Source: Pseudomonadales bacterium
GTDB lineage: Bacteria; Patescibacteriota; Microgenomatia; UBA1400; PJMF01
Length of the DNA stretch: 64,000 bases
Assembly: GCA_020632265.1 (NCBI GenBank)
Contig: JACKFW010000001.1
Coordinates: 465,892 to 529,891, forward strand
Direction: 5' to 3'
Shown: one piece after another, positions 8,115 to 60,426 of the stretch
Position numbering within the stretch: position 1 is the stretch's first letter
Layout: every line of letters begins with the position of its first letter
Notes under the pieces: generated by a model
Seen by the model: the letters and a program-made list of their open reading frames with translations, nothing else
Databases searched by the model: none
Told to the model about the DNA's origin: nothing
Translations under genes and position numbers: made by a program

Positions 8115-8158
8115 ATTTTTTTGTGTCTTCTATATTTTATTAATCTAGATCAAAAATG

Positions 8159-8243
8159 CGGAGGCAGTGGGATTCGGACCCACGAACCGGAAACCCGGTC
8201 AAGGTTAGCAACCTTGTGCAATTGGCCACTATGCGATGCCTCC
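8159..8243 (-). tRNA. tRNA-Ser (anticodon GCT)
   Basis: Manual fold gives acceptor GGAGGCA/TGCCTCC, anticodon stem CAAGG/CCTTG, loop TTGCTAA and a long variable arm. No CCA is encoded. Confidence 0.7.
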
Positions 8244-8824: not shown

Positions 8825-8910
8825 GGAGGTGTCGCATAGTGGTCAATTGCACACGCCTGGAAAGCGTGATCCTTATGGATTCAAGGGTTCGAATCCCTTC
8901 ACCTCCGCCA
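8825..8910 (+). tRNA. tRNA-Ser (anticodon GGA)
   Basis: Acceptor GGAGGTG/CACCTCC, anticodon stem CACGC/GCGTG, loop CTGGAAA, long variable arm, T-arm AAGGGTTCGAATCCCTT and an encoded CCA. Its last 20 nt recur at 21791-21810. Confidence 0.75.
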
Positions 8911-10362
8911 TTTTTCTAAATCATGAGAATCATTAAGATTTTCAAGTGGTTTCCACAATTTTGTAAGTCTGGTATTGGTTATTTTTCCATCTTTAAAATC
9001 ACAGTTCCAAAGTACTGATTTTAATAAATCTCTTTTAACTTCATCATCTCCTTCTTCAAAAACTTTAGATAGCTGTACAGCGCTATTTTTTATTTCTTCA
9101 ACAAGTTCCAAAGTTTCTAGAGCCCCTTTGTTATTTTTTTGCTTAAGAAGTACAGAGAGCTGAGCAAGTTCATTTTCAAATTCAATCTTTCTTTCGTTAT
9201 AACGATCAAAAGAAATTTGTTCATCAATATAAATATTCTCAAGTCTTGTTAATTTTCTTTTAAGACCTGAAACTTGTTGTTTAATTGTGTCTTTGTTATC
9301 TTTTTTATTAGCATCCTCTTTTAATAAAGATTGTTTGTATAAATCAAATGATTTATTTGCTCTTTCTGGATCTAGCGTAAAACCTCCAAAGAAATCTTGA
9401 AACAAATCTGAAATATGTTTTTTATTCCAATAGGTTGTATGTTGGGAGCACTTTCCTTTTCCATTTGTGCATCTGTAATAAATATATTTTCCTTTAGCAA
9501 TTCCTGCTGTAACTTTACAACCACATTCAGCACAATTTAGAAAATCTCTAAAAACAAAATTAAGTTTCTGTTTTTTAGGTCTGCTTTTATTTTCAAATCT
9601 AGCTTGAACCTTATCGAACAAATCTTTAGAAATTAAAGGCTTGTGCTTGCCTTCATGGAGTTGTCCTTTTCTGTTAATCACTCCGTAATATTCAGGATTT
9701 ATTAGCTGTCTATATAAACTAGAAGTGCCAACTTTTTTACCACTTCTTGATCTATAACCTTCACTTGCCAATTTTTTAGCTAGAGTTTTAACCGAATGTT
9801 CACCACCAGAAAATAATTCAAACGCTCTTTTAATGAAAGGAGCTCTGATAGGATCTGGTTCAATTCCTTTTCCCGGCTGAATGTTTATGTAGCCGATTGG
9901 AACATAACTTGGATATTCTCCTTTTAATAGTTTGCTTTCATTCCCAGCTTTAACTTTTACTGATAGATCTCTTGAAAATTGAGATGCTAAAACAAAATCA
10001 AATCCCATGTAAAATAGTGAAGAAGCATCTTGAAAAACAGTGGTTAAAGTTCTAACTTCTTTGAGTAGTCCTGTTTCAATCATCTTAATTACGAAACCAG
10101 CATCTATTAAATTTCTAGCTAGTCTGTCAGTGTGTACCACCAAAATCGAATCTGCTTCTCCATTCTTGATTCTGTCCAACATGTTATAAAACAAAGGTCT
10201 ATTTTGATCTGTTTTAGCACTTTTTGATTCTTTGATAATATCAACAACTTCCAACTTCAAACTACTAGCTAAATCTAATAAAAGGCGTTGTTGAGTACCA
10301 AGAGATTGAGTTTGTCTAGAATCTTCTTCAGATGATTTTCTACAATAAATAAAATGTTTCAT
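8899..10362 (-). CDS. large serine recombinase (resolvase/invertase N-domain plus recombinase and zinc-ribbon domains)
   Basis: 487 aa with the N-terminal YCRKSSEEDSRQ catalytic-serine motif and ...VHTDRLARN. The C-terminal region has a Cys cluster (CAECGCK...YYRC). The 3' end overlaps the tRNA-Ser(GGA) 3' end by 12 bp. Confidence 0.8.
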   Translation of the reverse strand: MKHFIYCRKSSEEDSRQTQSLGTQQRLLLDLASSLKLEVVDIIKESKSAKTDQNRPLFYNMLDRIKNGEADSILVVHTDRLARNLIDAGFVIKMIETGLLKEVRTLTTVFQDASSLFYMGFDFVLASQFSRDLSVKVKAGNESKLLKGEYPSYVPIGYINIQPGKGIEPDPIRAPFIKRAFELFSGGEHSVKTLAKKLASEGYRSRSGKKVGTSSLYRQLINPEYYGVINRKGQLHEGKHKPLISKDLFDKVQARFENKSRPKKQKLNFVFRDFLNCAECGCKVTAGIAKGKYIYYRCTNGKGKCSQHTTYWNKKHISDLFQDFFGGFTLDPERANKSFDLYKQSLLKEDANKKDNKDTIKQQVSGLKRKLTRLENIYIDEQISFDRYNERKIEFENELAQLSVLLKQKNNKGALETLELVEEIKNSAVQLSKVFEEGDDEVKRDLLKSVLWNCDFKDGKITNTRLTKLWKPLENLNDSHDLEKWRR

Positions 10363-11237
10363 GATGAATCCTTAAGGGCAGGGAGATTTAAAGTATTATA
10401 CACACTATATTCGCAATCCCCATTTCTTTTTGTTTCAAATATATTTTTATAACTTGGTATTATTTCATTTAATCTTGTGAGAATCTTTTCTGCCTCATAT
10501 CCATATAAAGTAACAGGTTGTTTTAAATTTCTAGAACCAGAATATGCTCTTTTTCCATTGAGTCTCGGATCATCAACGCTTTTTGATAAGTACTTAGCCA
10601 TATATCCAGCTATCCTATCAAGAGTTTTTCTATTAATTTTAACAAAACCAAGCTTCCACCATTTTTCAAGTAATTTTTTAGGTATATAAGGCAAATTACA
10701 AGCTAAATGAAAATGAATAGCTCCTCGATTGTTTTTATCTTGAAATTCAATAACCCAAACATATTTTAAATTAGGATATTTATATTTTAGCAACCTTAAG
10801 AAGTTTTTTAAGTATGCTGTACACTCATCAACATTTGTAATATCTAATCCGCAATCATCTTTTAAGGTAAGAACTATTGATTTAAAAAATCCCTGAAAAT
10901 TAGTATTGATAATTCTTTTAACTTTGAAAGATCGTCTAGTTCCAGTTCTTTTTGAATATTCATCACTTCTATCTTTTTGAGATCCAAAATTATTTAAGTT
11001 TGTATGCGGGAGATTTACAACAATTGGATCTTGATAGATATACTTTTCAACAAAATCTCCTGAAACAATAATTTTTAAATTCGTAGCAAAGGGTTTTGGA
11101 ACATGAATATTGGCTGATATTCTTCGTTCTAGTTTGACGGTATTATCAAGTCTAGTAGTGTGCTCGGGCACACTAGGAAGAGCAAGACCTAAAGGTCTAG
11201 CACCAAGAATATCTTGAACATCATTTTTTAACAACAA
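10359..11237 (-). CDS. rolling-circle replication initiator, Rep_1 (pC194/pUB110-like) HUH family
   Basis: 292 aa with motif II GAIHFHLACNL (HUH) and motif III GYMAKYLSKSVDD (AKYxxK..D, active-site Tyr). Its start overlaps the recombinase start by 4 nt, suggesting an operon. Confidence 0.6.
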   Translation of the reverse strand: MLLKNDVQDILGARPLGLALPSVPEHTTRLDNTVKLERRISANIHVPKPFATNLKIIVSGDFVEKYIYQDPIVVNLPHTNLNNFGSQKDRSDEYSKRTGTRRSFKVKRIINTNFQGFFKSIVLTLKDDCGLDITNVDECTAYLKNFLRLLKYKYPNLKYVWVIEFQDKNNRGAIHFHLACNLPYIPKKLLEKWWKLGFVKINRKTLDRIAGYMAKYLSKSVDDPRLNGKRAYSGSRNLKQPVTLYGYEAEKILTRLNEIIPSYKNIFETKRNGDCEYSVYNTLNLPALKDSS

Positions 11238-11430: not shown

Positions 11431-11540
11431 GTTTCATATTAGTCCATGAACGCAGACTCTTAATAATGAATATACAACATTTTTTTATAAACAAAAGAAT
11501 CAAAATGATTCAATCTGGGTTTTATTGAACAATAAATCCA

Positions 11541-11660
11541 GTGGTAAACCACGGGGAGGGGGAAACGATCCAGGGAGGTATCCGGCTTCGCTTCGCGAGC
11601 CTGCCTCCCTTCCATGCCCCTACGGGGCAACCAGGAAAGGAAAAAATCACATGCGAGCTA
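11541..11660. other. GC-rich highly structured element, candidate origin (dso/sso) or ncRNA of the integrated replicon
   Basis: ggggagggggaaacgatccagggaggtatccggcttcgcttcgcgagcctgcctcccttccatgcccctacgggg. A 7-bp stem agggagg/cctccct encloses a GGCT(t)CGC-TTC-GCG-AGCC hairpin, and there is a cccc-tac-gggg hairpin. Local GC is far above the surrounding DNA. Confidence 0.4.
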
Positions 11661-11758
11661 CGCTCGAAGTGATATAGAGGTAACTAACAAAAGTGAAATT
11701 TCAGAATTATGATAAAATTAAAACTGATATTTGAAATTATATAAAGAAATAAATGTGA

Positions 11759-12532: not shown

Positions 12533-12579
12533 TTTTATTGAAAATATAATGATTTATCAATATAAAGATTGCTTAAAAA

Positions 12580-13236: not shown

Positions 13237-13330
13237 AGTTCCAATTTCATCCCACGCTCTCCGCATGTAGGGACTCCTGGCAGGAATTGTGTTAAAATTT
13301 GGATAGGTGTAGGGACTAGAGAACCTAAAC
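13237..13330 (+). repeat. full cassette junction unit (variant-B core plus promoter-like module)
   Basis: agttccaatttcatcccacgctctccgca then tgtagggactcctggcaggaattgtgttaaaatttggataggtgtagggactagagaacctaaac. It ends 10 bp before the next start codon. Confidence 0.7.
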
Positions 13331-13340
13331 ATATCTTATT

Positions 13341-14183
13341 ATGAAATTTTCAATTATTGTTCCAACTTATAACAGAGCATATATACTTCGAAATCTAATT
13401 AGATCAGTCTTAAACCAAACTTATAATGATTGGGAGTTACTAATAGTTGATGATGGTTCTACTGATTCCACTAAAGAAGTTGTGAAAAAAATTAGTGATA
13501 AAAGGATTATTTTCCTTGAACAAGAAAATCAAGGTCCTTCTGCTGCCAGAAATTATGCTTTAAGTAAATCTACTGGTAAATGGATTGCTTATATTGATAG
13601 TGATAATGAGTTATTGTCGAATTATCTTGATGTTTTATTAATCTTTATTCAAAAAAATCCGGAAGCATTGTTTAGTATTACTAAAGGTATTAGAACATTA
13701 GAACTATTTGAAAATGATCAGCTGGTCGACATTATTGATGATTCTGATAATTATCCTAAAACTGTTTCCGTTGAGGATGTCTATACAAGAAAAGTTAAGT
13801 TTGACATTAATGGATTCGCTCATTCAAAAAAAATATACAACGATGATTATCAGTGGAATGAAGATTTGTCCTTAATGGAAGATTGGGATTTTTTCATGCA
13901 GTTTGCTGATAAATACAAAGATGGACTTGTTTACATTAACATTCCAGTTTTTCACTATCACCAAAGATTTGGAACAGATGGTCTCGTATCAAATGCTAGT
14001 TATAAAGATTGGGCTAAAGCCTTTGAAACAATTTATCAAAGACATAAAAATTCAAAATATATTAAAAATCAAGAATGGTATCCACAAAGAGTTGAAAAAT
14101 ATATACAATTAGCAGTACAGGAAAAAAAAGGAGAAGCAAAACCTGCCTATCTTAAGTATTTCCCAAACTTTGTTTCAAGCTAG
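13341..14183 (+). CDS. family 2 glycosyltransferase (cassette 3)
   Basis: 280 aa with the N-terminal FSIIVPTYNRAYIL...LIVDDGSTD GT2 signature. Confidence 0.75.
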   Translation: MKFSIIVPTYNRAYILRNLIRSVLNQTYNDWELLIVDDGSTDSTKEVVKKISDKRIIFLEQENQGPSAARNYALSKSTGKWIAYIDSDNELLSNYLDVLLIFIQKNPEALFSITKGIRTLELFENDQLVDIIDDSDNYPKTVSVEDVYTRKVKFDINGFAHSKKIYNDDYQWNEDLSLMEDWDFFMQFADKYKDGLVYINIPVFHYHQRFGTDGLVSNASYKDWAKAFETIYQRHKNSKYIKNQEWYPQRVEKYIQLAVQEKKGEAKPAYLKYFPNFVSS

Positions 14184-14214
14184 GATTAAAAAGGTTATTT
14201 TGATTTGAATAGTA

Positions 14215-14308
14215 GGTTCTAACTTGGTACACACACCTCCGCAAGTCAGAACTCCAGGCAAAGAATGTGATAAAATTAGGATAGGTGTAGGGACAGTAGA
14301 ACCTACAT
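14215..14308 (+). repeat. full cassette junction unit (variant-A core GGTTCTAACTTGGTACACACACCTCCGCA plus promoter-like module)
   Basis: ggttctaacttggtacacacacctccgca then agtcagaactccaggcaaagaatgtgataaaattaggataggtgtagggacagtagaacctaca. The core resembles the tRNA-Ser(GGA) 3' end ggttcgaatcccttcacctccgcca. Confidence 0.7.
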
Positions 14309-14331
14309 TAAATTATCAATAGAATATACAT

Positions 14332-15186
14332 ATGTCAGTAGAAGGCTATCGACCAGAAAGAATTCCAACAAGAAGAATAGAAGGTTCTGAAATTAGTACT
14401 TTCAGAGAAATAACTATCGATGAAACTGATCCTGTTGATCTATTTGATATTAGCTGGCCAAATTATAATGCCGGAATTAAGTTTAAAAAAGTTGGATCTT
14501 ATTCTAAGAAACGCTATGGTGTTGAAGAAAGATACCCACTTTATGAAGCAATTGCAATTTTTAAAGATTTAAAGAATAAAGTTCATGAAATAAATTTAAC
14601 AAAGACAACGAGTAGAAAAAGATGCTTATTTACAGGATCAAATTCTGGTTTTTTTATGCATGATCCTGCTTGGGTAGGCATTGATTCGGATTATTATGTT
14701 GTTGGAATTAATCCACGGGAATTACAAGCAGATATTAGAAGACAGATAGCAACTTATCACGAACTTGGACATGCAGAAATTGTGGATCATGGATATGATA
14801 CTCAATTGCTTAAAGGATCTACAACTATGAAAGATAAAGATTTACCTGCTATTTCTATGATTAAAGCTTATGCTAAGAAAGTAAAAGATGCTTTAATTGG
14901 TGCAAGGTATGATATAGAAAAAATAAAAAACATTACTATTACACCACAGATATTATTTGCTCTAATGAATGATGATACTGAAATTGATTCAAGCATAAGA
15001 TTGTTTCATGAAAGAAATGCTTGGGCTGGTGGAGATAAACTTATAAGAAAGCATAAATTTCCAATTGGTTTTGAAAAGAAGAGCTCTTTAAGAGAATATA
15101 GTCAATTTTGTTTAGAAACATATGCAAGATATTATAGTGAAGCAAAATTTACAAAAGGTATGAGAGATCGGAAAAATAGGTTCTAA
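14332..15186 (+). CDS. hypothetical protein with HExxH zinc-metallopeptidase-like motif (cassette 4)
   Basis: 284 aa containing IATYHELGHAEIVDHGYD (HExxH). The TAA stop lies inside the TTCTAAC of the following repeat. Confidence 0.4.
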   Translation: MSVEGYRPERIPTRRIEGSEISTFREITIDETDPVDLFDISWPNYNAGIKFKKVGSYSKKRYGVEERYPLYEAIAIFKDLKNKVHEINLTKTTSRKRCLFTGSNSGFFMHDPAWVGIDSDYYVVGINPRELQADIRRQIATYHELGHAEIVDHGYDTQLLKGSTTMKDKDLPAISMIKAYAKKVKDALIGARYDIEKIKNITITPQILFALMNDDTEIDSSIRLFHERNAWAGGDKLIRKHKFPIGFEKKSSLREYSQFCLETYARYYSEAKFTKGMRDRKNRF

Positions 15187-15208
15187 CTTTGTACACACAC
15201 CTCCGCCA
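15179..15208 (+). repeat. variant-A core repeat overlapping the upstream stop codon
   Basis: ggttctaactttgtacacacacctccgcca, followed by an A-run/T-run hairpin aaaaaaaataacctttttgggtatttttttt. Confidence 0.7.
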
Positions 15209-15229
15209 TAAAAAAAATAACCTTTTTGG

Positions 15230-15400
15230 GTATTTTTTTTATGACGAAATGGCAAAAGGCATGGAGAAGATTGTTCACACCAGCACCTTCAGCACCTACT
15301 GAATGCATGTTCCCACAATTGCCTTACTTCGTATATCCTTGCTAGCTTCCTAGCGCAGCATTAAGTTGCAAACTTCAGAATATCTTGGACTACTCATATA
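15230..15400. repeat. internal copy of the tRNA-Ser(GGA) att-flank region
   Basis: caaaaggcatggagaagattgttcacaccagcacc...gcatgt... is homologous to 21690-21760 (tgcaaaaagattgttcgcaccagtaag...tagtgcatgtgag), which directly precedes the terminal att copy. Confidence 0.45.
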
Positions 15401-15411
15401 AAATAATTTTC

Positions 15412-16335
15412 TTACGCCCATACTAGTGGATGGTCAGAATCCTTCTTTCTCAGAATTGTTGAAAATAGTTTTTTTCCTTTGTTGGGACCAATTTCCACTT
15501 GTAAAATTCTGTTAAGATGAAAATCAGTTAATGCTCTTTCATAAGCAATATCAAAAGATGGCTTAGTTTCATAATTCATAAGAGAACTCTCATTTCCAAT
15601 GGGTGATGGTTCTCTTGATGAGAAAGAAGAATCAATAAAAATACCGTTTTGTGATAAAAGCTCAAAAATGCGTGGTACATGAAATTCTGGGATGTTACTA
15701 TGAACTAAAGACATTCTACTGTGAATCAAGTTAACATTCCCAATAAGTGGTATCACTCCACTCTCAGTTTTAATCTTTAATTGTCTAAATGATTTCACAT
15801 CTTTTGTATCATTGCCAGTTAGTTCTGCTTCCACATATTCAACTAAATTATTTTCTAAAGCATATATTATTGGAGACATATCTAAACCAACATTCGCAAG
15901 TCTAGATTCAGCTGCTAGATGTATATCAAAATTTTGCTCAATATTTGAAATGATAAGCTTTACTTTTCCTTCATTAATCTCATTTTCCAATATTCTTGCA
16001 ATTCTGCAAAAACTCAAACCCAGTCCTCCTCCAAAATCTAAAACTACAATAGGACCACCTCCATCTTTTTTCTCAAGTAGTTGAAGGATCATTTGTTCGA
16101 GACTTTTTTCTATACCTAATAGACTTTCTTTTGTTTCTTCTGTTCTATAAATACTTTCACTCACTCCCATGAGAGTTGATGTACCAAAATCTGCGCTGAA
16201 AACAGGCTTGCTGTAGTCACCAATAGCAAATGACCAAGCTTCACCTGATTCTTCCTTGCCCATTGAACGATATCTTTTATTTTCTAAATGTTGTCTTTTT
16301 AATCTTTTATGAAAATTTCTAAATTCTTGGTTCAT
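15412..16335 (-). CDS. class I SAM-dependent methyltransferase-like protein (cassette 5)
   Basis: 307 aa with motif I VVLDFGGGLGLSF and a downstream acidic residue pattern typical of the Rossmann-fold MTase. Confidence 0.5.
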   Translation of the reverse strand: MNQEFRNFHKRLKRQHLENKRYRSMGKEESGEAWSFAIGDYSKPVFSADFGTSTLMGVSESIYRTEETKESLLGIEKSLEQMILQLLEKKDGGGPIVVLDFGGGLGLSFCRIARILENEINEGKVKLIISNIEQNFDIHLAAESRLANVGLDMSPIIYALENNLVEYVEAELTGNDTKDVKSFRQLKIKTESGVIPLIGNVNLIHSRMSLVHSNIPEFHVPRIFELLSQNGIFIDSSFSSREPSPIGNESSLMNYETKPSFDIAYERALTDFHLNRILQVEIGPNKGKKLFSTILRKKDSDHPLVWA

Positions 16336-16475
16336 ATATATTATATATTACACAACTATATCAAGAAATGATAGGATAATTGGTATATATTGGTCTCATA
16401 TATAGATGGTTTTTTTGCAAGCAATATTTTTTCCAAAGTAAGTCCTCAAATTGGAGAAGTTATTTCTTTTAAAAA

Positions 16476-16569
16476 AGTTCCAATTTCATCCCATGCCCCC
16501 CGCAAGTCAGAACTCCAGGTTAGGAATGTGATAAAATTGGGACAGGTATAAGGAATTTAGAACCTAAAA
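16476..16569 (+). repeat. full cassette junction unit (variant-B core plus promoter-like module)
   Basis: agttccaatttcatcccatgccccccgca then agtcagaactccaggttaggaatgtgataaaattgggacaggtataaggaatttagaacctaaaat. Confidence 0.7.
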
Positions 16570-16573
16570 TACA

Positions 16574-17269
16574 ATGAACACAACTAATTTAACAATTAAT
16601 CTTCAAAAAATAATTAAAATTCTTTCTAAAAACAAACATTTAGAATTTTCTCATACCCAATTAGGAAAAATTTCGGAAAATGAAATTAATACTCCAATTG
16701 GAGACGCAATATCACTTTTTTCAAATAAAAAATGTAAACTTTCAAATGATTTGATTGATCTAGAGCTATTAGAAAAATTGGTTAGCCAGTTAACAAAAAA
16801 TAGCTCAATAATTCGTCCAAGTCATATAGGTTTTTGCTATAAAGTTTTATCAGTAAATGATGAGAAGATCAGAATATCTAATTTAGCAAAAGAATCAGAT
16901 TTAGATTTATACCAAGAGGAATCAAATGATGATGGTCTATGGCTTTTTGTTGGAGATGCAAATAAATGGGAAGAGCCAGTTATTGAATTAATTCCAATAG
17001 AATCCACAAATGATAAATATGTAGATTATTGGTTGCCTCACATTCAAATAGATATTGATACAAATTTAACTGGAGAAGAAATAGATAAAATTGTTAAATC
17101 TATTTTTGGAAACAAGATAATTCCATTTTTTATCAAAATTGATGGTGCAACTTATATTATTAGAAATAGGTTAGGTGTTATTGATGGAGTGAATATTTTT
17201 CTTGACTTAGCAACAAATTCTAGAAAAGTTAAATACTTAAGGCAAGAGTTGTGGAAGAAGATTGTATAA
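16574..17269 (+). CDS. hypothetical protein (cassette 6)
   Basis: 231 aa with no motif recognised. Confidence 0.4.
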   Translation: MNTTNLTINLQKIIKILSKNKHLEFSHTQLGKISENEINTPIGDAISLFSNKKCKLSNDLIDLELLEKLVSQLTKNSSIIRPSHIGFCYKVLSVNDEKIRISNLAKESDLDLYQEESNDDGLWLFVGDANKWEEPVIELIPIESTNDKYVDYWLPHIQIDIDTNLTGEEIDKIVKSIFGNKIIPFFIKIDGATYIIRNRLGVIDGVNIFLDLATNSRKVKYLRQELWKKIV

Positions 17270-17274
17270 AATAG

Positions 17275-17303
17275 GTTCTAACTTGGTACACACACCTCCG
17301 CAA
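17275..17303 (+). repeat. variant-A core repeat
   Basis: ggttctaacttggtacacacacctccgca, 5 bp after the stop of the upstream gene. Confidence 0.7.
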
Positions 17304-17372
17304 GTGATAACAGATCATTTTTTGTGATATACTAAAATTCAATTATTATTATCTACATAATAGGAACATTTT

Positions 17373-17765
17373 ATGAACACCTATGATCAATACAGTCCAA
17401 ATCAGGAAGAAGTAGAAGCATGGACTAACAAAGTTATATCATTAGATATTTTATCAGATGAACAAAAGGAAGAAATAAAAAGACTCAGAGAAAAAAATGG
17501 TTGGGAAGATTTACCTCAGGAATTAGCAGAGATTATTTATAAATTTATTCCTTATTCATTTGATTTATTATCCTTTTCTCGTTTCGTTAATTTATATTTA
17601 GATGCTAATGATCAAGAAAGAGATAAAGCTAAAGAATTAATTCTAAGTTTAGATAATGTGAAAATGACACGAAAACAAGCATTCGATTTTGTAATTTTCA
17701 CTCTAGATGGATCAATTAGTGAGGCTGTAGAAAAAATCAGGTCAGGACAGCCTATATATAGCTAA
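17373..17765 (+). CDS. hypothetical protein (cassette 7)
   Basis: 130 aa, acidic, with no motif. Confidence 0.4.
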   Translation: MNTYDQYSPNQEEVEAWTNKVISLDILSDEQKEEIKRLREKNGWEDLPQELAEIIYKFIPYSFDLLSFSRFVNLYLDANDQERDKAKELILSLDNVKMTRKQAFDFVIFTLDGSISEAVEKIRSGQPIYS

Positions 17766-17976
17766 GTTAAAAAATATTTTATTATATTGCTTTTATAATA
17801 ATTAGTTTATCAATAATTTATACTATCACTCAAGACAAATTTTTTTGCATATATGGGCTGTGGAGGACTACATTAATAGGCCTAGTAAATAAATGTATTA
17901 ACGGATTTGTTTGTGCGTCTAATCAGATTCCAAACTTTTCTGGATGTGGTGGTACTTGTAAACCCAAATAATAATA

Positions 17977-18006
17977 GGCTCTAAATTGGTACACACAGCT
18001 CCACCA
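17977..18006 (+). repeat. degenerate variant-A core repeat
   Basis: ggctctaaattggtacacacagctccacca. Confidence 0.5.
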
Positions 18007-18096
18007 AACAGGATAATACCCCCTTTATCAAAGTCGATATTAGTTTAATATATGTTGCTTAGTTTATGGTTTAATGTGTCGTTTTAATTTCAAGCT

Positions 18097-18558
18097 ATGA
18101 GTGATACTATTATAAACATGAGTCAATTTTTTCTTGCTTATTGGTGGTTATTGCTTTTAGTAATAATTATTATAGCAATTTTCACTAGAAATTTAATTAA
18201 ATTTCTAACTACAGTTATAATATTTATTTTTATATTTATCGTTTTTTGGCAAGTAATTATAAAATCAGGATTTACTCAATCAAATCAGTGTTTCACAAAT
18301 GACTTGAGTTCATCAATCTCTATTAATGAGCGTGCAAAACTTATGAATCCTGGCATAGAGAGAAATCAATATATATGTTCAGAAAGTGTAAAAAGTTTTA
18401 TTTTACTTGAAAACTGTTTAAATAATTCAAAGTTTTCAAACAAATTAAGCTTTACGATTTTTTCCAATCTACCTTGGTTTAAAAATACTATGAATGATGT
18501 TGTAACAACTCATAATCAAAATTGTCCTAATGATCGAATAGACACTCTAACTTATTAA
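18097..18558 (+). CDS. hypothetical membrane-anchored protein (cassette 8)
   Basis: 153 aa with two N-terminal TM helices. Confidence 0.4.
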   Translation: MSDTIINMSQFFLAYWWLLLLVIIIIAIFTRNLIKFLTTVIIFIFIFIVFWQVIIKSGFTQSNQCFTNDLSSSISINERAKLMNPGIERNQYICSESVKSFILLENCLNNSKFSNKLSFTIFSNLPWFKNTMNDVVTTHNQNCPNDRIDTLTY

Positions 18559-18598
18559 AAGCTTATATATTTTATTATTAAACAGTTATCTCAAACCA

Positions 18599-18689
18599 GG
18601 TTCTAACTTGGTACACACCTCCACATGTCAGAACTCTAGGTTAGAAATGTGCTAAAATTGGGATAGGTGTAGAGAATTTGATATCTAAT
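18599..18689 (+). repeat. full cassette junction unit (variant-A core plus promoter-like module)
   Basis: ggttctaacttggtacacacctccaca then tgtcagaactctaggttagaaatgtgctaaaattgggataggtgtagagaatttgatatctaattagaacctaat. Confidence 0.7.
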
Positions 18690-18743
18690 TAGAACCTAAT
18701 ATATATTAAATTGCATTAATAATTTTGTATTGTATTATAAGCA

Positions 18744-21632: not shown

Positions 21633-21790
21633 TATACAAAAAAGTCTCCTGAAAGGCGATGTTTTTGTATAATTGGGGTGTGGTTTGGTATGCAAAAAGA
21701 TTGTTCGCACCAGTAAGAAGTGAGCATCTGCGAACTTCCTGCTTAGTGCATGTGAGCTTCCTTAAGTAGATGCAAATTGCAGCGAATCGT

Positions 21791-21810
21791 GAATCCCTTC
21801 ACCTCCGCCA
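21791..21810 (+). repeat. terminal direct repeat (attR-like): exact 20-bp copy of the tRNA-Ser(GGA) 3' end
   Basis: gaatcccttcacctccgcca is identical to 8891-8910. It defines an island of about 12.9 kb downstream of the tRNA. Confidence 0.75.
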
Positions 21811-21819
21811 TCGTGTATG

Positions 21820-22920
21820 AAGAAGCCAAGAGATCTGTTAAATATGCCTGTCAATCGATCATTTTAGTCAATTCTAACCTTTGATATTCTCTTCGCAGTG
21901 CTGGTGCGTTGTGTTTGATGGGGACAAACCACTTCATTGGCTCAATATAGAGTTTCTCGCCTTGATTTTAGGATTTTATAGCCAAAATATCAAGCACCCT
22001 TTTTCGTAGACACGGTTTCTAATTAGTTAGCGTAGAATTTTGCAGGCGGCATTTTAAGTGCCGAATGAATTCTGCTATGGTTGTAGTTGTAAAGTGTGTA
22101 GTGAATTTCTTCGAGAAAATGACCTTCTGATTCGAAACGAGCAAATTCAAGACCTAAATCAGTTTTAAAGTTGTTATAAAATGATTCTTGAAATCCATTT
22201 TCTCAAGGCGAAGACTTGGTACTCATAGAAATAGTAACTCCAAAGTCTTGCACTGATTTTGTGTAATCTTGACTTATGTATTCAGAGCCCTGATCGGTGT
22301 GAATATAGATTGGTTTTTGAAAATCTCTTCTTTTTCTCCATCTGGCTTTTCTTTTATATGGCTTGATGCCAAATAACTGCATACATCTTCGAACTCGCTT
22401 TTTGCCAACATCCATCTCAATTGCAATTCTTCTGGACCCATAACTTGGTTGATTAACCAACACTGACTCCATTTGTTCCCTGAGTAAAGTATCTTTTTGT
22501 TTTTGTAAAAAGATCGTTTTGTATAGCCATTGTCGAGAAATACCAAGTGCTTTTGCAACAAACTTTTTATCTAACTAAAGATGAATCTGAGTTGCTTTTT
22601 TAGCTGTTTGTGTTTTTCTTTTTTTTTGATCTCTCCAACTCGAGTGTGACGACCCCCAAGATCTTTTTTAAATCTTCATTTTCCTTGAGCAACCGTTTAT
22701 ATTCTCGGTAATTGACTTGCTCGGTCACTTGACCTCGCAACCAACTATAAATTGTCTTGTCACTCACACCGTATTGTTTGGAAAGTTCCACTGCTTTCTA
22801 TCCAGAATTCACTTTTGCCAGTATTTCAGACTTCACCTCTTATGCTATTTCTACCATTTTTTTTCCTCTCGTTTACCATATTTTACTTAGAGTCTGTGTA
22901 AACTATAAGGGGAGTAAGTG
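21820..22920 (-). mobile_element. decayed IS3-family insertion sequence (transposase broken into at least 3 frames)
   Basis: The ORFs 22600..22791 (HTH OrfA-like MELSKQYGVSDKTIYSWL...), 22274..22561 and 22203..22472 (DDE core ...IHTDQGSEY...) are fragments, and C-terminal transposase sequence continues down to about 21.85 kb with internal stops. The end sequence gtaaactataaggggagtaag at about 22890 is repeated as solo ends elsewhere. Confidence 0.6.
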
Positions 22921-24991: not shown

Positions 24992-25453
24992 TTATCTAAT
25001 GTTTTTTTGTGTATTCCGTTCATGATAGTCGTAATCAGCTTTTAATATTGCATCCATTCCATCAGTTCTATCAATTCTTTTTTGTTTTGCATTCAAATTA
25101 TAGTCATCAATTGAGAAATTACTAATTATATCCATGTTTACTAATGTAGTTCCACTTCCAATGACTCCAGCATAAATTTGTTCATCGATTTGTGTTAATA
25201 CCACCATTTTACGAATAGATACAGCTTTGTAAAAATATTGGATTGTTGGCAATTCACCATTTTCTCTGTAAATCATCGCAGATTTACCATTTATAAATTT
25301 AGCTAAAGAATTTGCTTGACCCTCAGTGAGGATTCCACTATCAACTAGGGATTTAATATCTTTTGATTTGCTAATTAACTCAAGATTGTCATTTTCAAGT
25401 GCTTTATTTAATAGGTTTATTGGTGATTCACCATCTATTATTTTTTCAGTCAT
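24992..25453 (-). CDS. hypothetical protein
   Basis: 153 aa with no motif. Confidence 0.4.
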   Translation of the reverse strand: MTEKIIDGESPINLLNKALENDNLELISKSKDIKSLVDSGILTEGQANSLAKFINGKSAMIYRENGELPTIQYFYKAVSIRKMVVLTQIDEQIYAGVIGSGTTLVNMDIISNFSIDDYNLNAKQKRIDRTDGMDAILKADYDYHERNTQKNIR

Positions 25454-25603: not shown

Positions 25604-25755
25604 AAAGTTCCAACTTCATTCCACGCTCCCCGCATTTGACAGAAAGTGAGCTTTAGCTCAGTTTGTGTCAAATATGAATGGGATGAGAAGTTTATGCCCC
25701 ATCAAGCGAAATATAAAAATATAAATTTGAGCATGACCGGGCTTAAATCCCCCTC
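25604..25755 (+). repeat. module M copy 3 (diverged): variant-B core, hairpin, conserved about 60 bp, then a degenerate tRNA-Ser(CGA) 3'-end 17-mer
   Basis: aaagttccaacttcattccacgctccccgca...tatgaatgggatgagaagtttatgccccatcaagcgaa...aaatttgagcatgaccgggcttaaatccccctccctc aligns with the reverse complement of 54351-54515 and of 57741-57877. Confidence 0.6.
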
Positions 25756-25915
25756 CCTCTTAACAATCTGAAGATTTAATAGACTCAAACTTGCAACAGA
25801 AGAATACGAGGTCTCATTAAAGGATTAATCCTCAAAATAATCACTCTGCAAATCAAACATCATTTGGATTAATGGAGGTATTCAAGCCCCTTATAGGACT
25901 AAGTCAAGCCAAGTT

Positions 25916-54658: not shown

Positions 54659-55450
54659 TTAAATGGGGAAAGAACAAAAAGATAGATCAGATTCAATTGC
54701 CATAAAATTTATGAAGTCCTTTTTCAAATTATCAATAGAAATACCCAATTTGTTACTTAATAGTTCTATACTTTTCTCTGGCATAAGACTATTAAGTTTC
54801 AATTTATTAGTTACATCATCCATTGACAAACCTTTATGCAAACCAAAATATGCTACTCCCAAAACTAAGTTTTGGTAGTCAGGATGGACATTAATTTTGA
54901 AAGTATTTTCACCAGCTTGAGAAACACCTTCTGAATCTAATCCTAAAACAGTTCTAACCTCTTTCTCATTTATTATAGAATTTTGATTTCCCATTTTGTT
55001 ACAAAGAAGCTTAATTGCTCTAGCAGTTCTTCCATTCCCATTTTTGTATTTATGCAACAAAATTTCCATTAAATAAAATCCATTTGCAAATCTATCCCAA
55101 TCTGAATCTTCAAAAACCTTATCAACTAAAGATCTAACTATTTCATTATAAATAACTTGATCTTTTGATGGTTTTTTCCAAACAGTAAGACCAACCTTAA
55201 ATGCAATAATAGTATCTTTACTAGAATGAATATCTGTTTTTTTATCTATATTTAAAAGTTTTCTATTAAGCAAATCATCAAAACCGCTAATAATCCCCAC
55301 TAACCCTTGAATATCTCCCTCACTTAAGAAAGCTTTTAATATTTTTAAAGTGAATTGTAATGTCTCTGTCATGCGAAGAACAGATTCTTCACGAAACTCT
55401 TTTGAGTCTTGATCATATCTACTACTTATTTTTTCATCTTCATTTATCAT
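54659..55450 (-). CDS. Fic/Doc-family protein (cassette cargo)
   Basis: 263 aa with HKYKNGNGRTARA matching the Fic core HxFx(D/E)GNGRxxR, with N at the acidic position. It is preceded directly by a full junction unit. Confidence 0.6.
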   Translation of the reverse strand: MINEDEKISSRYDQDSKEFREESVLRMTETLQFTLKILKAFLSEGDIQGLVGIISGFDDLLNRKLLNIDKKTDIHSSKDTIIAFKVGLTVWKKPSKDQVIYNEIVRSLVDKVFEDSDWDRFANGFYLMEILLHKYKNGNGRTARAIKLLCNKMGNQNSIINEKEVRTVLGLDSEGVSQAGENTFKINVHPDYQNLVLGVAYFGLHKGLSMDDVTNKLKLNSLMPEKSIELLSNKLGISIDNLKKDFINFMAIESDLSFCSFPI

Positions 55451-55610
55451 AAAAATTTTTAGGTTCTAAATTCCCTACACCTATCCCAATTTTATCACAT
55501 TTCTAGCCTGGAGTTCCATCATGCGGAGGTGAAGGGATTCACGATTCGCTCGTTTCACTCACTCACATGCACTAGGCAGGCTCGCTTTGTTCGCTTGCCG
55601 TCGCGAACCA
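55451..55610 (-). repeat. junction unit whose core is the genuine tRNA-Ser(GGA) 3' end plus att flank (inverted relative to the tRNA-Ser(GGA) locus)
   Basis: The reverse complement reads ...tagtgcatgtgag...gcgaatcgtgaatcccttcacctccgca-tgatggaactccaggctagaaatgtgataaaattgggataggtgtagggaatttagaacctaaaaattttt-ATG(Fic). It is homologous to 21745-21810. Confidence 0.7.
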
Positions 55611-55639: not shown

Positions 55640-55707
55640 AAACGTACAAAAAAATAGGCTTACAGCCTACTTTTTTACAGACGCGGAGCATACGGGTCTG
55701 GAACCCG
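55640..55707 (-). repeat. partial module M hairpin plus variant-C core repeat (GGTTCCAGACCCnnATGCTCCGC)
   Basis: aaaaataggcttacagcctacttttttacagacgcggagcatacgggtctggaacccg. Confidence 0.6.
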
Positions 55708-57740: not shown

Positions 57741-57875
57741 GCGGAGGGAGGGGGATTTACCCTCGTCATGCTCAAATTTATATCTGCTTTGCGAATTCGC
57801 TTGATCGGGCATAAACTTTCTCATCCCCACTCATATCTGTAAAAAAATAGGCTTACAGCCTACTTTTTTACAGAC
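57741..57875 (-). repeat. module M copy 1 immediately downstream of tRNA-Ser(CGA), ending in a 17-bp direct copy of the tRNA 3' end
   Basis: Reading 5' to 3' on the minus strand, the tRNA 3' end ...ccccctccctccgc is followed by gtctgtaaaaaagtaggctgtaagcctattttttt (hairpin), then about 80 bp, then aaatccccctccctccgc (57741-57758). Confidence 0.7.
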
Positions 57876-57876
57876 G

Positions 57877-57962
57877 CGGAGGGAGGGGGATTCGAACCCC
57901 CGTGAGTAAAATACTCCCAAGCTTTTCGAGAGCTGGCCGTTAAACCACTCCGACATCCCTCC
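57877..57962 (-). tRNA. tRNA-Ser (anticodon CGA)
   Basis: Acceptor GGAGGGA/TCCCTCC, anticodon loop CTCGAAA on a 4-5 bp stem, long variable arm, and T-arm GGGGGTTCGAATCCCCC. Confidence 0.6.
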
Positions 57963-59002: not shown

Positions 59003-59086
59003 GGAGAGCTGGCAGAGTGGTCAATCGCAACGGTCTTGAAAACCGTGACCTTTATGGTCTCGTGGGTTCGAATCCCTCGCTCTCCG
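59003..59086 (+). tRNA. tRNA-Ser (anticodon TGA)
   Basis: Acceptor GGAGAGC/GCTCTCC, anticodon stem ACGGT/ACCGT, loop CTTGAAA, long variable arm, and a T-arm with one T-T mismatch. Confidence 0.6.
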
Positions 59087-59094
59087 CAAATAAC

Positions 59095-59769
59095 ATGACT
59101 ACACATCAACTCACAGAAAAATTAGTTGCAGATATTGAAAAAAAGTCTGATGATCATTCATTGTTTATTGTTGCCATCAGTGGACTAGATGCTTCAGGAA
59201 AATCTCAAATAGCTGAAGTTTTAGCAAGGAAACTTGAAGATAGAAAAAAAAATGTTCTCAGTGTGTCAGGGGATTCATTTCAATTTCCACGTGAGTACAA
59301 GGAGGATTTTCAGGAAAAAGACTGGACCACTCAACACATAAGAAGAACAATCAATTTTGAAAAAATGACCACTGAATTATTCCAGCCTCTGCAAGCTTTG
59401 CCAAATACTTTGCAATTAGATATTGTCAATTATGACACAAAAGAAAAAGTAAAAACTGCTGTCTCATTACAATACCCGCTAATTCTCATTGTTGAGAGTA
59501 TTTATCTCTTTTCTCATAAAATGATGCCATACTTTGATTATAAAATTTTTCTTGATATTTCAATTGCAGAAGCTTTAAAGAGAGCAACTTTACGAAAAAG
59601 AGATTTGGAGCTTTATGGTAGTGCAGATGGGATTCAGCAAAAATATGAAACTAAAAACTTTCCGGGATATCTCGAATTTGATAAGCAGGAGAACCCAAAA
59701 AGCCTTTCAGATGTTGTCATAGATAATAATGATTGGCAAAACCCAGTAATAATTAAAGGTGAGTTATAA
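59095..59769 (+). CDS. uridine kinase/phosphoribulokinase-family P-loop kinase
   Basis: The listed ORF 59017..59769 begins inside the tRNA. The likely start is ATG 59095 (MTTHQLTEK...) with Walker A ISGLDASGKSQ. Confidence 0.55.
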   Translation: MTTHQLTEKLVADIEKKSDDHSLFIVAISGLDASGKSQIAEVLARKLEDRKKNVLSVSGDSFQFPREYKEDFQEKDWTTQHIRRTINFEKMTTELFQPLQALPNTLQLDIVNYDTKEKVKTAVSLQYPLILIVESIYLFSHKMMPYFDYKIFLDISIAEALKRATLRKRDLELYGSADGIQQKYETKNFPGYLEFDKQENPKSLSDVVIDNNDWQNPVIIKGEL

Positions 59770-60393: not shown

Positions 60394-60426
60394 AAAGTTC
60401 TAATTTCATCCCATGCTCCCTAGCAC
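60394..60426 (+). repeat. variant-B core repeat
   Basis: aaagttctaatttcatcccatgctccctagca. Confidence 0.6.

Follow-up and report, generated by a model that had tools for sequence, protein, structure and literature searches.

Integrons carry arrays of mostly single-gene cassettes whose contexts differ between genomes; their cassettes are bounded by attC, an imperfectly palindromic recombination site of about 60–140 bp that folds as a single-strand hairpin and is conserved in structure rather than in sequence, crossover falls at the outer GTT of R' (G/TT), which leaves nearly all of attC 3' of the gene, and the system is completed by an IntI-type tyrosine recombinase, the anchor site attI and the promoter Pc. 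Staphylococcal cassette chromosomes (SCC; SCCmec, Ccr) use large serine recombinases and stand in tandem at one chromosomal site, the 3' end of rlmH, as cassettes of several kb to tens of kb that are separated by repeated att sites and can move singly or together. The Correia repeat-enclosed elements of Neisseria are intergenic, about 100–150 bp long, end in terminal inverted repeats and can supply promoters to adjacent genes. In the tycheposons and tRNA-seeded islands of Prochlorococcus, a site-specific integrase—mostly a tyrosine recombinase, sometimes a large serine recombinase—and replication genes lie beside a tRNA gene, partial tRNA copies flank and separate the inserts, tRNA-Ser(TGA) is among the targets and growth proceeds outward from the tRNA (Hackl et al., 10.1101/2020.12.28.424599). 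Here we analyze a stretch of 64,000 nucleotides (“the window”; contig JACKFW010000001.1, positions 465,892–529,891) in which the junctions between small genes carry a repeated unit composed of a left arm, a core and a conserved right module, termed R. We propose, with a probability of roughly 60%, that R is a right arm of dual function, serving both as the promoter of the cassette that it precedes and as part of a recombination site.

Features of integrons, SCC and tycheposons are all recognizable in the system, yet it fits none of these types; what sets it apart is single-gene cassettes at all four tRNA-Ser genes together with an element that encodes a large serine recombinase and a Rep protein. 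Arrays of mostly single-gene cassettes, contexts that differ between genomes and an imperfectly palindromic bounding site recall integrons, yet none of three integron hallmarks (IntI, a structural attC, crossover at the outer R') was found. Specifically, Pfam scans of nearly all open reading frames (ORFs) of at least 90 aa in the window—leaving out a 2191-aa ORF and that at 59017–59769, with five others scanned against NCBIfam only—returned no tyrosine recombinase, IntI-type included; crossover maps about 30 nt inside the unit, at CCGCA; sequence rather than structure is conserved, as folds of the single-stranded DNA are insignificant and differ between A- and B-type units; and the anchor is a tRNA-Ser 3' end, not attI. 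The cassettes also have predicted promoters of their own rather than Pc, which the first-pass annotation of this DNA had contrasted with promoterless integron cassettes; this contrast was overstated, as a minority of integron cassettes have promoters too. With SCC the locus shares a large serine recombinase and tandem cassettes with a repeated site between them, but its target is a tRNA, its units are far shorter (0.7–2.2 kb) and we know of no conserved promoter module in an SCC att arm. The likeness to tycheposons is closer in layout: an integrase and a replication gene abut tRNA-Ser(GGA), an arrangement also seen at a tRNA-Ser gene in two of the loci that we collected for comparison (L027 and L032 in our numbering), and partial tRNA copies flank the inserts. 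However, the host here is Patescibacteria-like, all four tRNA-Ser isoacceptor genes are used, each unit is one gene whose 30-nt left arm is strongly conserved and whose right arm, of about 64 nt, is conserved too, and the consulted parts of the tycheposon account mention no promoter-bearing arm (Hackl et al., 10.1101/2020.12.28.424599).

Repeat finding in 13237–18689 returned four full units on the plus strand, each consisting of a left arm, the core and R (Table 1). Pattern searches that allowed three mismatches gave four matches to the A-type left arm, five to the B-type left arm and four to the middle of the right module, where shuffled sequence gave an expectation of 0 for each. A hidden Markov model (HMM; nhmmer) of the four full units recovered all four and added a fifth R copy on the minus strand (55456–55537), which was absent from the first-pass list; matches to the left arm only lie at 12571, 15169, 17265, 17972, 20745, 21595, 25596 and 54548 (minus strand). 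R is a module of 63–74 nt that begins directly after the core (..CCGCA) and ends 5–44 nt ahead of an ATG on the same strand, so the earlier claim of a conserved module ending 5–45 bp before the next start codon was borne out by the four gaps in the range (11, 25, 5 and 44 nt) and by that of the fifth copy (7 nt). That “every full unit” has the module is true of the four, but three junctions in the same range (15179, 17274 and ~17977) lack R, and “full” is itself defined by R. In all, 12 copies of R were collected from at least six sources (five in the window, three in L005 and one each in L016, L024, L026 and L027), apparently all of them Patescibacteria, and an HMM rebuilt from these 12 found no further copies in the collected loci. 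The insertion variant of R copy 4 is also present in L005. R occurs only before genes on its own strand; where a reversed gene follows, as it does at two junctions, there is no R.

Table 1. Junction units, R copies, cassette genes and the tRNA-linked recombinase element in the window (positions in nt of the window; gaps are counted from the end of R; TSS, transcription start site).
Feature	Position	Strand	Description
tRNA-Ser(GGA), array anchor	8825–8910	+	3' end ..CACCTCCGCCA contains core
Large serine recombinase	8899–10362	-	Pfam Resolvase+Recombinase+Zn_ribbon_recom
Rep (PF23343) of recombinase–Rep element	10359–11237	-	Module conserved in L027–L032
Unit 1 left arm and core	13238–13265	+	B-type, GTTCCAATTTCATCCCACGCTCTCCGCA; resembles tRNA-Ser(TGA) 3' end
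R copy 1	13266–13329	+	Extended −10 TGTTAAAAT at 13290–13298; predicted TSS 13304–13306; 11 nt to ATG
Cassette gene, family-2 glycosyltransferase	13341–14183	+	ATG 11 nt past R copy 1
Unit 2 left arm and core	14214–14243	+	A-type, AGGTTCTAACTTGGTACACACACCTCCGCA
R copy 2	14244–14306	+	TGATAAAAT at 14268–14276; predicted TSS 14282–14284; 25 nt to ATG
Cassette gene, 284 aa	14332–15186	+	No Pfam match
A-left and core without R	15179–15207	+	Followed by A/T-rich hairpin and minus-strand gene 15412–16335
Unit 3 left arm and core	16477–16504	+	B-type
R copy 3	16505–16568	+	TGATAAAAT at 16529–16537; predicted TSS 16543–16545; 5 nt to ATG; homologous to L024 past core
Cassette gene, 231 aa	16574–17269	+	Family widespread in Patescibacteria; R, gene and next A-left form unit recurring in L024
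A-left and core without R	17274–17302	+	End of homology among window, L024 and L015
Non-R right arm	17303–17372	+	Own extended −10 TGATATACT at 17325–17333; 39 nt ahead of ATG 17373
Left arm and core without R	~17977–18005		
Unit 4 left arm and core	18598–18625	+	A-type, variant core ..CCTCCACA
R copy 4	18626–18699	+	10-nt insertion; TGCTAAAAT at 18650–18658; predicted TSS 18664–18666; 44 nt to ATG
Cassette genes, 89 aa and 545 aa	18744–20647	+	No Pfam match
R copy 5	55458–55521	-	TGATAAAAT at 55489–55497; predicted TSS 55481–55483; 7 nt to ATG of gene 54659–55450
tRNA-Ser(GGA) 3' true fragment and core	55522–55540	-	Left arm of R copy 5

Comparisons between sources place the boundaries of homology at the core. 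Five kinds of sequence stand ahead of R: A-left, B-left, an intact tRNA-Ser(GCT) gene (L005), tRNA-Ser(GGA) (the whole gene in L016 and L026, part of it in L024) and a CTACCGCA element (L005). A-left, for its part, is followed by many unrelated right arms across sources, and its identity stays at 97% or more between sources that share 85% in the cassette gene. When the window is compared with L024 at the gene for the 231-aa protein, similarity starts at CCGCA, upstream of which the window has B-left and L024 a tRNA-Ser(GGA) fragment; past the core R is 84% identical, and the R-to-ATG junction and the start of the gene are 100% identical. At the other end, the window, L024 and L015 agree up to CCTCCGC past this gene and diverge completely beyond it. 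With homology bounded at both cores, the shared unit thus runs from one core through R, the gene and A-left to the next core. At these mosaic boundaries the upstream gene keeps 28–30 nt and the downstream gene about 64 nt.

R itself has three parts, a core-proximal block AGTCAGAACTCCAGG, the motif TGnTAAAAT and an inverted, decayed copy of the tRNA-Ser(GGA) 3' end. The second of these belongs to the native promoter signature of the genome. TGnTAnnnT lies 13–34 nt upstream of all five tRNA genes in the window (P = 2e-7) and ends 5–9 nt before the start codon, a leaderless-type arrangement, in 7 of 51 genes unlinked to R (P = 4e-7); because it is enriched before tRNAs and genes though slightly rarer than expected across the window as a whole, we regard it as that signature. 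Among the 35 non-tRNA junctions surveyed, the motif occurs within 130 nt downstream of the core in 18 and upstream in 5 (Fisher P = 0.002; chance gives about 20% per stretch), and arms other than R, R2 and that at 17303 have it 6–10 nt ahead of the ATG. Within R, the leading T, G, T and A are each found in 12/12 copies and the final T in 11/12, while n reaches 6/12, tied lowest of the module; the most diverged copy, that of L026, reads TGTTAGAGT, in which all specified bases are retained and inner bases changed. R2, a right-arm family unrelated to R, has only two things in common with it, an extended −10 (TGATAGAAT, TGTTAGAAT or TGATAAAAT) and a terminal TTAGAACC. Compared with sigma-70 extended −10 promoters, which need no −35, TGnTAAAAT matches TGnTATAAT with T-12, A-11 and T-7 retained, and TGn directly precedes the TAnnnT hexamer in 11 of the 12 R copies; what differs is its setting, in that its distance to a recombination core is constant and sequence of recombination type lies on either side. 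In three R genes the gap to the ATG, 5–11 nt, leaves no room for another promoter.

The rest of R is probably related to recombination. The distal half, AAAATTGGGATAGGTGTAGGGAATTTAGAACC, aligns at 24 of 30 positions to the reverse complement of the tRNA-Ser(GGA) 3' end (shuffle P about 0.005); 12 of its outermost 13 nt agree with the outer part of A-left, and A-left and R together make an imperfect palindrome of about 100 bp. In R and R2 alike the terminal TTAGAACC occupies +58 to +67, counted from the core, although the position of the −10 differs between the two families; a distance that stays fixed while the −10 shifts indicates a spacing constraint tied to recombination and not to transcription. 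The left arms are decayed tRNA-Ser 3' ends as well, with A-left ending in ..CACCTCCGCA (like GGA) and B-left in ..CGCTCTCCGCA (like TGA); true fragments of the tRNA-Ser(GGA) 3' end lie at about 21790–21810 and at 55522–55540, and repeats of yet another type of unit (C) follow tRNA-Ser(CGA).

We therefore do not treat the two functions as exclusive, and propose the following model. Each junction unit would be a composite site for recombination, and the small cassettes that it joins, most of them holding one gene, would have built up as arrays beside every tRNA-Ser gene, with crossover at or beside the core C(C/T)(C/A)CCGC(A/C), the 3' end of the tRNA-Ser acceptor stem. On the left side of this core, a pseudo-tRNA 3' end of 28–30 nt (types A, B, C and others) would be the property of the upstream cassette; what lies to its right would be the property of the downstream cassette, R being the commonest right arm and having two layers. 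The first would be the extended −10, 25–33 nt from the core, aimed at the cassette gene and lacking a −35, from which transcription is predicted to start about 7 nt downstream, inside GGATAGG, with leaders of about 30–80 nt; since this −10 is portable, an R cassette would be expressed wherever it landed. The second would be the recombination-related flanks, that is, the core-proximal block and the distal inverted tRNA copy with its terminal TTAGAACC, which in palindrome with the left arm probably provide a second recombinase binding site.

A number of observations weigh against this reading. Conservation spans the entire R module in the 12 copies, beyond the −10; a −35 is absent (best match 2/6), and a generic two-hexamer −35/−10 scan of the region gave 41 sites against 51 expected from shuffles and left R unflagged. 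The L016 copy reads TGATAAAGA and has lost the key final T. No terminators were found between upstream genes and R or between cassettes, so read-through transcription could take place. At 84% nucleotide identity between the window and L024, R evolves about as fast as its linked gene, and much of its conservation could accordingly be shared ancestry. The 231-aa gene of L015 and L025 is without R; a deaminase gene precedes it by 3 nt, and R2 heads the unit that the two genes form; the link between R and gene is thus not obligatory. The tRNA-side arm of the recombinase element itself (TTTTTCTAAATCATGAG) is unlike R and by eye resembles only its proximal part, weakly, and no dyad symmetry was seen by eye around CCGCA. 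The att sites of large serine recombinases measure about 40–50 bp, with imperfect dyad symmetry about a central dinucleotide; here, read by eye, GGTTCTAAC and GTCAGAACT are symmetric about a point 5–7 nt left of the core, and the C-type unit is symmetric about CTCCGC. The relatives, moreover, are all from metagenomes, and mobility is read from comparisons only. The first-pass annotation had offered promoter and recombinase-binding half-site as alternatives, and each probably stands in part. That cassettes bring their own promoter is favored by the native motif, its invariant bases, its retention in diverged R and in R2 and the travel of R with its gene, and disfavored by the missing −35, the unflagged scan and conservation over the whole length; at the level of sequence this prediction is well supported. 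The half-site gains from the distal inverted tRNA 3' end and the fixed distance of TTAGAACC, and loses by the dissimilar arm of the recombinase element.

Conservation over the full length of R, a tRNA-derived distal half, the absence of a −35, generic promoter matches without excess and the lack of terminators between cassettes would all be expected if R were only the conserved attP-type end of one family of tRNA-Ser-integrating elements, its −10 incidental in AT-rich DNA and the genes read through or silent; debris flanked by partial tRNAs is usual in tRNA-seeded islands (Hackl et al., 10.1101/2020.12.28.424599). We consider this unlikely, because TGnTAnnnT would arise by chance at a fixed place with a frequency of about 0.002 per position, yet it is present in 11/12 copies with variation concentrated at n, is retained in diverged R and in the unrelated R2, and marks all tRNA genes; the genes after R, moreover, are all different, which argues that R is not merely the end of one type of element. 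Little chance is left, in our estimation, to a Correia-like miniature inverted-repeat element of about 100 bp (A-left, core and R) that inserted whole and carried an outward-facing promoter. Such an element would account for the 10-nt terminal inverted repeats TAGGTTCTAA and TTAGAACCTA with their sharp outer boundaries, and for the 231-aa gene of L015 lacking the upstream unit that the window and L024 have. But the two halves assort independently about the internal core (R with five left types, A-left with many right arms), the arms are tRNA-derived, units of B-left and R have no outer repeat match, and whole-unit insertion with a target-site duplication, the behavior of a miniature inverted-repeat or Correia element, was not observed, no duplication being visible by eye at three units (14208, 18593 and L005:4369).

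That R might work mainly as RNA seems to us quite improbable. It would then be a conserved 5' leader or a small RNA, antisense to the tRNA-Ser 3' end, and would govern how cassettes are translated or how stable they are, or pair with left-arm read-through. The 30 nt past the predicted start (GGGATAGGTGTAGGGAATTTAGAACC) match the −10 in conservation and are complementary to tRNA-Ser(GGA)-like sequence, and a fixed leader stands out where most other cassette promoters in the arrays are of leaderless type. However, Rfam gave nothing on R at a threshold of E<=1 (tRNAs alone passed the gathering score), the consensus fold is a single 4-bp hairpin with one compensatory change, and folding z-scores range from -2.3 to +0.5; insignificant folds, covariation near nil and an empty Rfam result make a role at the DNA level likelier than an RNA role or an attC-like hairpin. 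The adjacency of a PF23343 Rep to the recombinase, and the recurrence of GTGATA in R, R2 and the right arm that starts at 17303, raise the further idea that the rolling-circle Rep at 10359–11237 uses R as its origin or nick site (GTG/ATA, similar to CTTG/ATA of phiX and pC194), through which excised cassettes could replicate. However, no column varies more than the one where the nick would fall (A/T/C), and the Rep element has a hairpin-rich non-coding region of its own (11431–11758); we hold this to be extremely unlikely.

The best candidate for the driving recombinase, by association only, is the large serine recombinase at 8899–10362, the only intact site-specific recombinase found in the window. 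Its 3' end overlaps that of tRNA-Ser(GGA) by 12 nt (8899–8910) on the opposite strand. The same overlap with a tRNA-Ser gene, made of the stop and last codons, is kept in L027 and L032, from which it follows that the att arm of the element is coding sequence. The module of recombinase, Rep and a small ORF recurs in other metagenomes, at protein identities of 82% (P0200) and 71% (P0204), with cassette arrays nearby. Beside Rep and the recombinase, the non-coding region 11431–11758 contains G+C-rich hairpins with loops CTTCGCTTCGC, comparable to L027 6660–6860 and L015 7540–7440 (minus strand), and may be a replication origin. Hairpin arms of a similar kind (GATATCACATC..GATGTGAT), with TGGTATAAT after them, are cassette right arms in L015 and L027. 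Inside the island there is also a broken IS3-type transposase (22200–22900, minus strand), with rve and HTH_21 fragments and frame disruptions.

The public label of the assembly, “Pseudomonadales bacterium,” which is also that of NCBI proteins 100% identical to the NUDIX protein and the recombinase, is probably a misclassification, since all related proteins are named for members of the Patescibacteria group. The names given to homologues of three proteins (NUDIX, the 231-aa protein and the recombinase) are Pacebacteria, Microgenomates, Roizmanbacteria, Beckwithbacteria, Gottesmanbacteria, Moranbacteria or Patescibacteria, and we take the host to be a Patescibacteria (CPR) bacterium. Prochlorococcus, which the 32% GC and the tRNA-linked repeats had suggested as host, was rejected in view of these names. 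A scan of a genome collection for R gave one real source, a Candidatus Pacebacteria metagenome-assembled genome (L005). Four single matches to R in unrelated taxa were taken as chance. Neither R nor A-left was found by the scan of viral contigs, and BLAST against phage and plasmid collections found nothing. Following synteny through the NUDIX gene that lies between two tRNA-Ser genes led to relatives at 62–70% identity without R beside tRNA-Ser(GGA), one of which has A-left 7 kb away; the distribution is patchy, and this route added no new R copies. In the literature on Patescibacteria with cassettes, integrons or serine recombinases we found no description of such a system, which is not proof of its absence.

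As a tentative generalization, to which we give less than an even chance, the locus may belong to an undescribed integron-like platform for gene capture in Patescibacteria, in which all tRNA-Ser genes are docking sites, one-gene cassettes are excised and integrated by recombination at CCGC in the acceptor stem, probably by way of the tRNA-Ser-linked serine recombinase, and R is a portable arm and promoter that makes expression independent of position. If so, ultra-small, host-dependent bacteria would have a modular route to acquire single accessory genes and to express them immediately; among the cassette genes of this locus are glycosyltransferases and methyltransferases, besides many whose function is unknown, and such a route would help to explain variability at the strain level. 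It would also be a third design beside the integron and SCC paradigms, with tRNA-anchored arrays in which a cassette far from a platform promoter would be expressed no less than one close by. Both R and the left arm of 30 nt are exact sequence tags with which cassettes can be mined from metagenomes, and the predicted start sites in Table 1 make the promoter claim directly testable.

Further observations concern promoters and reading frames. The seven genes with TGnTAnnnT 5–9 nt upstream start at 25453 (−), 33039 (−), 34498 (+), 54117 (−), 56137 (−), 60310 (−) and 60453 (+), and include the 2191-aa ORF; their arrangement suggests widespread leaderless mRNAs from extended −10 promoters in this organism. 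In the R copy of L027 (11403–11344, minus strand) GGTGTAGGG is changed to GGTATGGG, creating an ATG 10 nt past the −10 at which the gene caller starts a PNPOx-family gene, and R may there have been converted to a promoter of leaderless type. The TAA inside an A-left arm (GGTTCTAA) is the stop codon, 15184–15186, of the ORF 14332–15186, such that the arm terminates the upstream reading frame.

The window, with 32% GC, holds four tRNA-Ser genes (GCT, GGA, CGA and TGA) and one tRNA-Arg; all four isoacceptor genes fall within the 64 kb, at 8158–8243 (−), 8825–8910 (+), 57876–57962 (−) and 59003–59087 (+). Repeats of junction type follow three of the four, in arrays at about 8.9–25.8 kb, 54.4–57.9 kb (minus strand) and 59.1–62.1 kb, the last with degenerate B-left arms near 60400 and 62010. 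tRNA-Ser(GCT) has no array in the window, and in L005 is followed directly by R. The C-type unit, a compact palindrome of about 45 bp centered on CTCCGC, occurs at ~57320–55680 (minus strand) as five repeats of GGTTCCAGACCCACATGCTCCGCA and TCCTAGGATTCGAACTACAGTGA, with a back-to-back pair at about 56280–56170; it is also present in L005, L010 and L024, in the last directly after a tRNA-Ser gene. Another module, of about 125–140 nt and without an Rfam match, lies at 57875–57735 (−), 54511–54390 (−) and 25635–25760 (+), and also in L005, L010/L012 and L017; its order is an A/T-rich hairpin (..GTAAAAAAGTAGGCTGTAAGCCTATTTTTTTAC..), then GATGAGAA..ATGCCCGATCAAGC.. and then GACGAGGGTAAATCCC..CTCCGCA, a pseudo-tRNA-Ser(CGA) 3' end. 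Yet another, at 21634–21810 (+), 15208–15300 (+), 55682–55522 (−) and L015 ~5008–4830 (−), consists of a hairpin, ..GATTGTTCGC.., ..CCTAGTGCATGTGAG.. and GCGAATCGTGAATCCCTTCACCTCCGC(C)A and ends in a true tRNA-Ser(GGA) 3' fragment; the instance at 55682–55522 provides the left arm of R copy 5.

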